Of a stretch of 64,000 nt of DNA, positions 3,464 to 5,971 are shown in pieces; the first letter of the stretch is position 1; each line of letters starts with the position of its first letter. Both the position numbers and the translations under genes were made by a program. The DNA is from Deltaproteobacteria bacterium (GTDB taxonomy: Bacteria > UBA10199 > JACPAL01), in NCBI GenBank assembly GCA_016180855.1, contig JACPAL010000005.1, positions 52,905 to 116,904 on the forward strand, given 5' to 3'. The notes under the pieces were generated by a model that was not told where the DNA came from, did no database searches, and worked only from the letters and a program-made list of their open reading frames with translations.

Positions 3464-5041
3464 ATGTCGAGGCTGACGCTTGATCGGGATAGAATAGAGA
3501 GTTGCCGCAAGATTTCGGAGAAAGTCGCCCGTAATCTTCAGGATGTTGTTGATCATCATACAACCATTTCTGTGGAGAGGGCTGTCCTGAGGCTCTTTGG
3601 AATTGAGGAGGCCTACAAGGGGAGGCCATTGGTTGAGGCCGTTTTGAATACCCTTGGGCCAGAGGACCTCTCCAAGGGGATTTGCTATTGGCTCGGGAGG
3701 GCGCTCGTTTCACAAAGGACGACACCGATCAGTTTTTGTCTGAGGGTTGCCGAGGGGAGGCTTCGCTTCCAGGAGTTGCCCGATGTCGACCCGGAGGAGA
3801 TTCGGGTTGTTTTGGTTCCGCTGGCCGAAGGGGCGATTAGCCGGATTGAACAGGCCAAAGAGACACGTAAAAAAAGGCTCCGCTCGCTCCCTCCTTCGCC
3901 CAGGCCTCTTCGCTACGTCACGCTCTCACCCTCATCCGTTGAGGAGCAACGGGAGGAGGCAAGGTCTGCCATTCTTCAGGGGGCGGATTGCATCGACATC
4001 GGTTCTGTCCCTCATTTGGAATTATTGCCGGAGAGATACCGTCTTTTTCGGAACCTGCTTGACGAGATTTCAGATCGTGAAGGGAGGTATATTCGACTTA
4101 TTGCCTCGGCGACGGATGGTCAAATAGCAGAGGTGACAACGATCGCCGCCCTGGAGAAGGTCGATTATCTTTCGGGGGACCTGTTTTGTGATGTTTTAGG
4201 AGGAAGGGGGACGGTCAAACAGAACCTCATTGAGCATCAGTTCGCGCGAAGGGTCATGGCCTGTGCCGGAATTGTCCTCAATACAGGCGTGAATTTACCG
4301 GCCGCATCCGGTGGAAATTACTCCCAGGTGATTGCCACACATTTTCTCACAGAGAGTTTATCCCTTGCTGGAGGCATGGCGTTTGATCAGATCGGTCTGG
4401 GGCATCCTTTCCGGTGGTCACCGGAATCAGAGGAGCTTCTTCTCCACGAGATGTCTGGCTCCTGCCTGATTCGTGAGCTGTTCCCAAAGGCCCCCCTTAA
4501 ATATCTTCCCCCTTCACCGGATTCTCTCCCTGAGGATCTGAACCCCAGGTTTCTTCAGTGGCTCTATCACTGGGTTGCCCTGGTAACCGGTCAGGAGATT
4601 TTTCAGGTAAAAGATGTGAAAGGGGATTTAAGGCAGTTGGCGATGATGAAACCCCTCGCGGAGGGATTCATGGACGAGATGGAGTTTGCCTCTAACGGTA
4701 AACTGGTTCGTCGGGCACGAACTTTTTTAGATGATGCCTTCCACCTTCTCCAGCGGGTTGAAAGATATGGTTTTTTGAAGTCATTTGAAGAGGGGCTTTT
4801 TGGGAACACCTCTCTTTTATCGACGTCGGATGAAGGGTCGATTCATAAGGGAGATCATTATTACAATCCGCTGCTGGAGCTTTTAAACAGGCCGTCTGAA
4901 GAGGAGACCTCGCCGATTACCCACACTTATCACAGGGGCTCTGAGAGGGGTCATGGGGAAAGACGAGGACGCCGTGTGGGAGGGCCTCCAAGACGGGGGC
5001 ATGGCAGAGGACGTCCCAGACGTAAGCAAAGTCGGAAATGA
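3464..5041 (+). CDS. Lysine 5,6-aminomutase alpha subunit (KamD)-like TIM-barrel protein, orphan (no B12-binding beta partner), with an Arg/Gly-rich C-terminal tail
   Basis: Blocks resembling the KamD/OraE alpha-subunit family as I remember it (HHTTISVERAVLRLFGIEEA; YIRLIASATDG; FPKAPLKYLPPSPD); C-terminus RGSERGHGERRGRRVGGPPRRGHGRGRPRRKQSRK. Confidence 0.5.
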   Translation: MSRLTLDRDRIESCRKISEKVARNLQDVVDHHTTISVERAVLRLFGIEEAYKGRPLVEAVLNTLGPEDLSKGICYWLGRALVSQRTTPISFCLRVAEGRLRFQELPDVDPEEIRVVLVPLAEGAISRIEQAKETRKKRLRSLPPSPRPLRYVTLSPSSVEEQREEARSAILQGADCIDIGSVPHLELLPERYRLFRNLLDEISDREGRYIRLIASATDGQIAEVTTIAALEKVDYLSGDLFCDVLGGRGTVKQNLIEHQFARRVMACAGIVLNTGVNLPAASGGNYSQVIATHFLTESLSLAGGMAFDQIGLGHPFRWSPESEELLLHEMSGSCLIRELFPKAPLKYLPPSPDSLPEDLNPRFLQWLYHWVALVTGQEIFQVKDVKGDLRQLAMMKPLAEGFMDEMEFASNGKLVRRARTFLDDAFHLLQRVERYGFLKSFEEGLFGNTSLLSTSDEGSIHKGDHYYNPLLELLNRPSEEETSPITHTYHRGSERGHGERRGRRVGGPPRRGHGRGRPRRKQSRK

Positions 5042-5044
5042 TTT

Positions 5045-5971
5045 ATGCCAGGAATCGGCATTGTCCTAAATCCGCATTCCAAGCGTTATCGCAAAAATCC
5101 TGAAAAATTGAAGAGGATGGGTTTTATTGTTGGAGAGAGGGGAAACTTTGCGCCAACCAATAACGATCTCGACATCCGGCGTGTTGCTGAAGAGTTCAAA
5201 AGGAAGGAGATCGATATCCTCGCGATCACGGGGGGTGATGGGACGAATCATGTCACGCTCACAACGTTTATCCAGGTTTATGGGGATCAACCTCTTCCCA
5301 AAATTACCTTCTTGAGAGGGGGAACTCTCAATACGATTGCCTTTGGATGTGGTATCTACGGCGCTCCGGAAAAAATACTGACTAACCTTCTCTATAAATA
5401 TCACGAGGATGAACCGTTTGAGCAGACGGAGATTGATATCATGAATATCAACGGCAAATACGGTTTTATCTGGGGATGTGGAGTGATTGACCGGTTCATG
5501 AACGCCTACTATCGGGGCGGCATTCCGTCTCCCACGCAGGCGGCCGGGACTTTGTTCAAGTCGATCGGTTCCGCGCTGGTCAATGGTCCGTTTGCCTGCA
5601 AAATGTTTGAGAGGATGGATGCCGAGGTTCAGGTCGATGGCGAAAGGTGGCCGTTCAAAAATTATTCCGCTATTTATGCCGGCTCCCTCGAATACCTCGG
5701 CCTTGCCTTTCGTGTCTTCTACAAGGCGGTGGAGCCAAGGCGATTTCATGCGGTCGGTTTTTCGCTCCCGCCGCGGAATGTGCTTGCTTACGTTCCACGC
5801 ATGTTTTTGGGGAAGCGATCAGGTTGTCCTGACCTCGTGGAGAACTCCTGTGCTGAAATGGTTATCCGGCTTTCCGAACCGGTGGGGTATACGATTGATG
5901 GTGATCTACATCCACCGACCAATCAGTTTCACTTAAAACTCGGTCCCCGTCTCAAGGTCATCGTTCGTTGA
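5045..5971 (+). CDS. DAGK-catalytic-domain family kinase (YegS/BmrU/NAD-kinase-like lipid kinase)
   Basis: ITGGDGT motif and overall DAGK_cat-like N-terminal half; starts 4 bp after the stop of the KamD-like gene. Confidence 0.55.
   Translation: MPGIGIVLNPHSKRYRKNPEKLKRMGFIVGERGNFAPTNNDLDIRRVAEEFKRKEIDILAITGGDGTNHVTLTTFIQVYGDQPLPKITFLRGGTLNTIAFGCGIYGAPEKILTNLLYKYHEDEPFEQTEIDIMNINGKYGFIWGCGVIDRFMNAYYRGGIPSPTQAAGTLFKSIGSALVNGPFACKMFERMDAEVQVDGERWPFKNYSAIYAGSLEYLGLAFRVFYKAVEPRRFHAVGFSLPPRNVLAYVPRMFLGKRSGCPDLVENSCAEMVIRLSEPVGYTIDGDLHPPTNQFHLKLGPRLKVIVR

Follow-up and report, generated by a model that had tools for sequence, protein, structure and literature searches.

Lysine 5,6-aminomutase (5,6-LAM) depends on adenosylcobalamin (AdoCbl) and pyridoxal 5′-phosphate (PLP) and belongs to the lysine-fermentation pathway encoded by kamA-kamDE-kdd-kce; its alpha subunit, KamD, is represented by PDB entries 1XRS, 8T0V and 9Q1A. 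Here we describe a locus in which a KamD-like open reading frame (ORF) of 525 amino acids (aa) is followed directly by a gene for a 308-aa protein with a diacylglycerol kinase catalytic (DAGK_cat) domain, within a 64-kb stretch of DNA from a Deltaproteobacteria bacterium (contig JACPAL010000005.1, positions 52,905 to 116,904; hereafter the window). We argue that this KamD has lost its chemistry, and we lean toward the view that it has been retained as a folded, non-catalytic pseudoenzyme.

In the live enzyme, the N- and C-terminal modules that flank the KamD barrel reportedly form an "accessory clamp". Its beta subunit KamE has OAM_dimer and B12-binding domains and is normally encoded beside kamD. 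The alpha subunit contacts PLP through R184, G187/Q188/S189, Y236, S238, Y263, R268 and N299, and the lysine that forms the internal aldimine resides on the other subunit, KamE (PMC3958899). Reviews describe an ATP-dependent auxiliary protein, "E2", of native 5,6-LAM, whose gene they do not name. For the neighboring protein, the closest described systems are DgkB, YegS and sphingosine kinase, with which it has in common a two-domain fold, a GGDGT motif and a similar size. More generally, pseudoenzymes are dead homologs retained as scaffolds or regulators of active partners. Our literature search found no paper on a pseudoenzyme derived from a B12-dependent aminomutase.

An earlier sequence-only reading of this DNA had assigned the two proteins to the KamD and DAGK families, and profile searches bear out both assignments. 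The 525-aa protein matches PF09043 (Lys-AminoMut_A) with E = 1.8e-75 (254.8 bits against a 25-bit cutoff) and is homologous over its full length. Because it scores 255.9 bits against the 600-bit cutoff of the NCBIfam equivalog model for the aminomutase alpha subunit (NF052384), its sequence marks it as a homolog of the family and not as an equivalog. Homology searches return a small subfamily that is 34-42% identical to the window protein and whose members all exceed canonical KamD in length; the canonical proteins themselves reach only 25-30% identity with it, and the nearest live proteins are clade-A KamDs at 44-45% (we call KamDs that keep the active-site residues live and those that have lost them dead or degenerate). 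AlphaFold2 predicts eight strands and flanking modules with a predicted local distance difference test (pLDDT) of 86.2 and a predicted template modeling (TM) score of 0.87. This model has the (β/α)8 barrel together with both accessory terminal modules, and it aligns with 8t0v_A, 9q1a_C and 1xrs_A at TM scores of 0.84-0.86 and a root-mean-square deviation of 2.5-2.6 Å, in line with the triosephosphate isomerase (TIM) barrel that had been proposed from the sequence.

To map functional residues, we rebuilt the 1xrs_A sequence from the HMMER alignment, whose numbering reproduces every published residue, and read the window protein through it. Eleven of the 12 functional residues are lost: R184, G187, Q188, S189, Y236, S238, Y263, R268, D298, N299 and E341 are replaced by S, H, L, E, S, T, C, G, N, a gap and R, respectively. 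The single survivor is K370, a residue that we added to the published list. Ten of the 11 lost positions are conserved in 10/10 live comparators (six subfamily orthologs and four canonical KamDs); the other, the backbone contact G187, is Ala in 7/10 of them. Three in-frame deletions accompany these substitutions: about 18 aa at "GATTEGFGGTYATQ" in the loop after β2 (near nt 4020), 3 aa at "GEDNY" after β5 (near nt 4295) and 12 aa at "LLGMxTEAIHNP" after β8 (near nt 4600). In the AlphaFold2 model, all three lie on the catalytic face. Because all PLP contacts and three catalytic-face loops are gone and no subunit carrying B12 and the PLP lysine is encoded nearby, we conclude from the sequence that the surviving KamD cannot perform aminomutase chemistry. 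Compared to canonical KamD, the window protein retains the predicted barrel with its terminal modules and lacks the active site and three loops, and the window has none of the partners KamE, KamA, Kdd and Kce.

The origin of the orphan gene can be read from related genomes (compared loci carry L numbers and individual proteins P numbers). We identified close relatives through the conserved DAGK gene, at 68-80% identity. L007 has the order RlmD-like, kdd, kamA, kamD, kamE, 4HBT, two unrelated reverse-strand genes, kce, DAGK, AnmK; L008 and L009 have RlmD-like, kdd, kamA, kamD, kamE, kce, DAGK, a small ORF, AnmK; L001 is arranged like L008/L009 minus kamA; and L010 has kamA, kamD, kamE, 4HBT, kce, DAGK, with kdd absent from the stretch available. 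The window is collinear with L001, with identities of 57% for RlmD, 42% for KamD, 76% for DAGK, 49% for the small ORF and 63% for AnmK, and synteny identifies the 525-aa ORF as the positional ortholog of kamD, which is live in the sister genomes. The sister loci have kdd-kamA-kamD-kamE-(4HBT)-kce in the interval flanked by these RlmD-like and DAGK genes, which indicates that the window pair is the remains of a lysine-fermentation operon. The comparison points to at least two deletions, one of kdd/kamA upstream, where the junction is now 3416-3463, and one running from kamE through kce downstream; both spared kamD and left it abutting the kinase gene.

The lack of a kamE next to kamD, which the sequence-only reading had remarked on, extends to the whole window: KamE, Kdd, Kce, KamA and 4HBT queries from three relatives gave no tblastn match in the 64 kb, and a Pfam scan of 45 of the 55 window ORFs found no B12-binding domain or lysine-fermentation gene among those 45. 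The same reading had implicitly treated the protein as a working metabolic TIM-barrel enzyme, a view not supported in light of the loss of every PLP contact and the origin of the orphan state by operon deletion. A second metagenome-assembled genome (MAG) of the same species, also named "Deltaproteobacteria bacterium" (L006; GCA_016187815.1), has the identical eroded locus, with no kamE in its gene table; 16 apparent "intergenic" differences between it and the window proved to be a contig-end artifact.

Two further observations concern the related loci. In L010 (CP064976.1, a 2.7-Mb contig), kamE, kce and anmK are each split into two or three ORFs (8152-8990, 9348-10013 and 11388-12535), reflecting either assembly frameshift errors or ongoing decay of the locus. 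The kce gene (BKACE) overlaps or abuts the start of the DAGK-like gene in five relatives (L001 16745-16757; L007 10001-10025; L008 9999-10001; L010 10001-10013; L013 10001-10019), and L013 has kce-DAGK-AnmK without kamDE in the vicinity; conservation of the kinase gene's link to kce is thus no weaker than that of its link to KamD.

At the window junction, AAA TGA TTT ATG, the DAGK gene starts 4 bp past the last base of the KamD-like stop, leaving a 3-nt spacer, as the sequence-only reading had stated. A terminator-like site was not found in the junction, nor did the + strand show a promoter-like site ahead of the DAGK start. From their spacing, the two genes are likely to be translationally coupled.

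We then asked how the 525-codon ORF has evolved. Across residues 1-100, the window protein is 63% identical to live orthologs, compared to 70% among the live proteins themselves; the corresponding values are 35% versus 88% for residues 176-300 and 30% versus 80% for residues 301-400. At the codon level, the proportion of non-synonymous differences (pN) in the N-terminal module is 0.23-0.28 between window and live genes against 0.21 among live genes, and in the core it is 0.45-0.47 against 0.095, an approximately fivefold faster divergence. The tail also diverges fast. Against L001, L007 and L008, synonymous sites of the window have reached saturation, the proportion of synonymous differences being 0.66-0.96 over the genes and regions compared. 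Every indel preserves the frame, and the ORF is intact. When the live 245-codon core was evolved neutrally to 45-65% aa divergence, in a simulation that ignores frameshifts, it stayed free of stop codons in 10, 2 and 1 of 400 runs. Because of the N-terminal constraint, the codon-level pN and the simulation taken together, purely neutral decay of the ORF is disfavored. We infer that selection has been lifted from the catalytic core and still acts on the N-terminal module and, less strongly, on the C-terminal module. With only a same-species relative at ≥50% identity in an exhaustive HMMER scan, the window protein is a lineage-specific long branch.

Dead KamDs also occur in other lineages. We scored 11 positions (G187 was left out) in 46 full-length representatives from an exhaustive scan: 12 keep 9-11 of the 11 residues, 9 keep 4-8 and about 26 keep 0-2 with shortened loops. 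The degenerate sequences fall into recognizable groups, and a consensus of 28 of them has conserved N- and C-terminal blocks and no conserved barrel core. A metagenome scan with one five-sequence degenerate group returned 15 loci, of which L022 was left out of residue scoring. Across all scored loci, KamD keeps 11/11 residues where KamE is present and 0-1 where KamE is absent or truncated. The same family includes several fusions outside the window. P0186 (841 aa) joins an intact KamD (11/11) to an N-terminal extension of about 310 aa with the P-loop GADKNCGKTTF, an NTPase-KamD fusion that could point to the ATP-dependent E2, or reactivase, of 5,6-LAM; KamD is fused to KamE in P0208 and to GNAT in P0218.

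In L015, L017, L018 and L019, the KamD-like protein keeps 0-1/11 residues and ends in a basic tail of 56-76 aa; these loci lack kamE, kdd, kamA and kce, and a DAGK-like gene (311 aa) lies directly downstream. The related loci L020, L021, L023 and L025 have kamE and a KamD with 11/11 residues, and the DAGK-like gene follows kamE in L020-L023 and L026, while none was found in L025. A third degenerate group comprises 17 members that are 41-49% identical to the query, several of which NCBI names only "hypothetical protein"; its representative L030 keeps 1/11 residues and has a 3-nt spacer between the dead KamD and DAGK genes, TGA CAC GTG. The pairing described by the sequence-only reading is thus recurrent, being found in the window, L015, L017, L018, L019 and L030, and in these six dead loci the distance from KamD stop to DAGK start ranges from an overlap to 15 nt.

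A tree of the DAGK proteins, used as an organismal proxy, places the window, L015-L019 and L030 on three deep branches: the window is nested among live-kamD genomes, L015-L019 are sister to the live L020-L023 and L030 stands apart. Together with the sequences, this indicates three or more separate losses of catalysis, all of them accompanied by deletions in one and the same pair of loops (1XRS 184-210 and 404-418). Within the L015-L019 group, dead KamDs are 37-46% identical and their linked DAGKs 55-69%, a KamD/DAGK identity ratio of 0.60-0.79, compared to 0.93-1.46 for live pairs and 0.53-0.60 for the window; about 100 columns are invariant among five members of this group. By these measures, the dead KamDs evolve faster and yet have clearly been constrained over long times.

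The other two degenerate groups (P0184/L015-L019 and P0228/P0323/L030) resemble the window protein in their dead active site, with 0-2/11 residues kept, in the shortening of the same loops, in their preserved N- and C-terminal blocks and in the DAGK-like gene directly downstream. They differ from it in being old and conserved within themselves (37-49% identity among members) and in standing behind other apparent lysine-catabolic operons, whereas the window protein reached the dead state separately and more recently and has no lysine genes beside it. All come from MAGs labeled "Deltaproteobacteria bacterium", where they are annotated either as "hypothetical protein" or, by default, as an aminomutase subunit. 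By Pfam, the genes upstream of the pair in L015 and L017 encode an acyl-CoA dehydrogenase, an AlaDh/PNT-type dehydrogenase, a saccharopine dehydrogenase and an aldehyde dehydrogenase, with subunits of a 2-oxoacid:ferredoxin oxidoreductase in L015 only and a permease in L017; those in L030 encode an acyl-CoA dehydrogenase, a class-III aminotransferase and an aldehyde dehydrogenase. On their domains, these operons look like alternative lysine-catabolism routes. Between the L030 acyl-CoA dehydrogenase and aminotransferase genes lies an ORF of 525 aa (5265-6842, + strand) with no Pfam match.

An intermediate arrangement is seen at L011 (P0010), where an RlmD-like gene and a degenerate KamD are followed by a 99-aa kamE remnant that consists of the OAM_dimer domain only and then by a redoxin. 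A neighbor-joining tree of KamD, in which the dead proteins sit on long branches, joined the window with L011. It was set aside as unreliable: RlmD places L011 outside the window clade, its RlmD being 39% identical to that of the window compared to 53-57% for live relatives, and the two KamDs share the residue at only 6/54 co-changed positions.

The neighbor of the KamD-like protein matches PF00781 (DAGK_cat) with E = 1.9e-8 (34.4 bits against a cutoff of 23.6). It has more than 435 homolog clusters, most of those listed being 307-309 aa long, and in 69 homologs G63-G64-D65-G66-T67 is invariant along with 46 other columns; the gene is highly conserved in this lineage. The AlphaFold2 model (pLDDT 88) matches 4wer, 2qv7, 2qvl, 3t5p, 3vzb and 2p1r in Foldseek with TM scores of 0.65-0.73 and E of about 1e-18 to 1e-19; the best structural matches are DgkB, YegS, sphingosine kinase 1 and uncharacterized DAGK-domain proteins, and NAD kinase reaches a TM score of 0.48. 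The predicted structure thus clearly belongs to the two-domain DgkB/YegS/sphingosine-kinase fold class. In sequence, by contrast, the protein is only 12-19% identical to these kinases, its matches to PDB sequences are marginal (E of about 0.01) and it falls below the NCBIfam equivalogs (30.6 against 118.65 for TIGR00147; 19-24 against 284-387 for YegS). A scan of the genome contigs with the DAGK protein found only one short relative and one spurious match.

The conserved neighborhood of the kinase gene combines lysine catabolism on its 5′ side with peptidoglycan recycling on its 3′ side, where AnmK, a MurU-like NTP_transferase, an AmgK-like APH protein and NamZ recur across deep divergence (L001, L007, L008, L013, L020, L022, L030 and L019, in the last at 4622-5767). 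To our knowledge, such a neighborhood has not been described for DgkB or YegS. Such surroundings hint that the kinase may be functionally connected with the turnover of muropeptides or lysine.

The KamD-like protein ends in a 51-residue tail (14 R, 9 G and 5 P; net charge +11) that is predicted to be disordered (pLDDT 41-48); of all 30-residue stretches in the 55 window ORFs, the most basic lies within it. The tail had been described from the sequence as Arg/Gly-rich with RGG-like repeats, a composition that in that reading would suit binding of nucleic acid or a polyanion. It holds no RGG tripeptide, five RG and three GR, and is basic in composition without being a canonical RGG box. Canonical KamDs of Firmicutes and Actinobacteria have no such tail. 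Comparable basic tails are found on the live KamDs of L001, L002, L003, L007, L008, L010 and L025 and on the dead ones of L011 and L015-L019, so that the feature is common to many live and dead relatives; it is not universal, and the L030 group lacks it. Because live KamDs beside kamE in related genomes carry it, the tail does not mark the orphan state. We rejected two other accounts of it: that it is a frame-shifted kamE remnant, since live orthologs have comparable tails upstream of an intact kamE, and that it reflects a proteome-wide habit, since it is the sole R/G-rich C-terminal tail among the 55 window ORFs.

Taking these results together, we consider it somewhat probable, on balance, that the KamD-like ORF has been retained as a folded, non-catalytic pseudoenzyme. 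As in pseudoenzymes generally, catalytic residues are lost, the fold is kept (as predicted), a gene partner is conserved and there are signs of purifying selection, here the N-terminal pN, the intact ORF, the simulation and the parallel dead groups. In our account, a lysine-fermentation operon was eroded by at least two deletions that left kamD beside the kinase gene; KamD lost its active site and kept its predicted fold, and selection would persist on the N-terminal and less on the C-terminal module. Because a dead KamD directly upstream of the same kinase gene is conserved in two other deep lineages, the scaffold may possibly serve the kinase as a non-catalytic partner, an adaptor or regulatory subunit, a proposal that we hold with less confidence than retention itself. 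The basic, disordered tail could tether the KamD-like protein to an anionic surface, either the membrane or a polyanion.

A more specific version of this proposal, which strikes us as decidedly unlikely, holds that KamD pseudoenzymes bind the kinase stably through their N- and C-terminal modules and that, in live loci, this contact makes the kinase-fold protein an ATP-dependent accessory protein of 5,6-LAM. Once lysine fermentation had been lost, the pair would have been kept for a second role, for example to anchor or control the kinase at an anionic surface by way of the basic tail, with a link to the turnover of lysine or peptidoglycan. On this speculative view, the conserved gene that follows kamDE would be a candidate for E2; that the kinase gene persists where KamE is missing argues against E2 being its only role.

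Several observations weigh against retention as a partner of the kinase. The adjacency of KamD and the kinase could be a passive result of deleting the intervening genes: live loci have kamE, with or without kce, between kamD and the kinase gene, and those of clade B have an intergenic gap of 90-380 nt before the latter. Kinase genes are also found near kce without kamDE (L013) or with neither kce nor kamDE in the vicinity (L014), and the degenerate KamD of L011 adjoins a kamE remnant and a redoxin, not the kinase. The alignment given to AlphaFold2 consisted mostly of live enzymes, and the model may make the fold look more intact than it is. Within the species (window, L006 and L012), polymorphism amounts to five synonymous and six non-synonymous sites (P = 0.10), which are too few sites, and a HMMER scan of about 15 billion proteins found only the same-species relative at ≥50% identity.

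The last two points are also what a plain relic would lead one to expect, that is, a non-functional kamD remnant in mid-decay that came to lie beside the kinase by the accident of operon deletions. Such polymorphism is compatible with neutrality, the core diverges about fivefold faster than in live enzymes and the tail fast as well, the equivalog score falls far below its cutoff and the split genes of L010 could mean that such loci decay, unless they are assembly errors. We nevertheless judge a relic unlikely, though it is a serious contender, for the ORF remains open over 525 codons even though its synonymous sites have reached saturation against the closest live orthologs, its three deletions are in frame, its first 100 codons evolve at the pN of the live enzyme and a simulated core stayed stop-free in at most 2.5% of runs. 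Two separate deletions spared kamD, and other, deeply diverged lineages have likewise kept a dead KamD. Selection might instead act on the open frame alone, with the protein itself having no role, if translation through kamD allowed ribosomes to reach the coupled kinase start and avoided Rho polarity. The 3-nt stop/start spacing, the lack of a terminator-like or promoter-like site found before DAGK and a high non-synonymous divergence free of stop codons all fit this idea. We regard it as very improbable, since it leaves unexplained the amino-acid conservation of the window's N- and C-terminal modules, the conservation across 28 degenerate homologs and the roughly 100 invariant columns of the L015-L019 type.

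Two alternatives assign the barrel a ligand or a reaction of its own. If the dead barrel had kept an affinity for lysine or a related metabolite and regulated lysine breakdown, this would account for the position of dead KamDs at the 3′ end of saccharopine-type (L015, L017) or aminotransferase-type (L030) operons. The window pair, however, has no lysine-catabolic neighbors (an RlmD-like gene lies upstream and the rest is housekeeping), the live substrate site depends on PLP, whose pocket is gone, and the pathway assignments of the neighboring operons come from Pfam domains alone; such a regulator or sensor seems improbable to us. That the protein is an active orphan enzyme, working in a pathway with the kinase through new chemistry or as an aminomutase whose beta subunit is encoded elsewhere, draws on the strong PF09043 match, the intact predicted barrel and the retained K370. 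It is scarcely tenable given that all PLP contacts are lost, three active-face loops are deleted and conservation is lowest in the barrel core; the internal-aldimine lysine, moreover, resides on KamE (PMC3958899), which is absent from the window.

Table 1. Features of the KamD-like/DAGK locus and its flanking genes, in window coordinates.
Feature	Position	Strand	Basis
RlmD-like rRNA methyltransferase, upstream synteny anchor	2288-3415	+	homology and synteny
KamD-like ORF, 525 aa	3464-5041	+	PF09043 Lys-AminoMut_A
N-terminal module, residues 1-100	3464-3763	+	ortholog-level constraint
Barrel core, residues 176-400	3989-4663	+	apparently released from catalytic constraint
Arg/Gly/Pro-rich tail, residues 475-525	4886-5038	+	composition and AlphaFold2
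Stop/start junction TGA TTT ATG (KamD-like to DAGK)	5039-5047	+	sequence
Kinase-like ORF (DAGK_cat), 308 aa	5045-5971	+	PF00781, ITGGDGT motif
Small TSP3-like ORF	5979-6509	+	weak NCBIfam MtsC match
Cys-rich ORF, 125 aa, signal-peptide-like N-terminus, extremely Cys-rich C-terminus CDDDCNWCCCDSNGQNCRCC	6537-6914	+	
AnmK (anhydro-MurNAc kinase), downstream synteny anchor	6965-8107	+	PF03702, E = 4e-99

The sequence-only reading had further proposed a small module in which the pair is joined by the downstream TSP3 lipoprotein and Cys-rich peptide (Table 1), for which we find little support. The TSP3-like ORF has counterparts at 35-48% identity in L001, L004, L008/L009 and L010 and is absent from other clades, and it is probably not part of the pair. 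Among the loci compared, the Cys-rich ORF occurs only in the same-species L006, where it is not called as a gene, and it has no Pfam or NCBIfam match.

The other window ORFs covered by the Pfam scan are housekeeping, transport and envelope genes. Elsewhere in the window, a 485-aa Cys-rich protein with internally repeated modules CGNxxCEEGEDEYICPVCxDPSLPCPxGPC and no Pfam match is encoded at 11152-12609 (− strand). Adjacent ORFs of 137 and 106 aa at 9460-10190 (+) are a candidate HEPN/nucleotidyltransferase (MNT-type) toxin-antitoxin-like pair, judged by their own sequence and by similar genes at the edge of L001. Two paralogous AAA_14+DUF4143 ATPases are encoded at 8226-9368 (+) and 28615-29829 (−), and tandem large proteins with DUF5122 beta-propeller repeats and DUF11, probably surface proteins, at 23071-25455 and 25552-27396 (+).

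For the PF09043 family at large, these results mean that many metagenomic members cannot be aminomutases, about 26 of the 46 full-length representatives keeping no more than 2 of 11 residues. Some such proteins carry the label "lysine 5,6-aminomutase subunit alpha", and lysine fermentation and butyrate pathways would accordingly be predicted too often. The loci can be arranged as stages of one process, from the full operon (L007, L008) through the OAM_dimer-only kamE remnant (L011) to the orphan dead subunit of the window. That a radical-enzyme subunit is found repeatedly beside an uncharacterized, conserved kinase-fold gene provides a concrete two-protein hypothesis for an abundant uncultured lineage of groundwater and sediment, with possible relevance to the ATP-dependent partner of 5,6-LAM.

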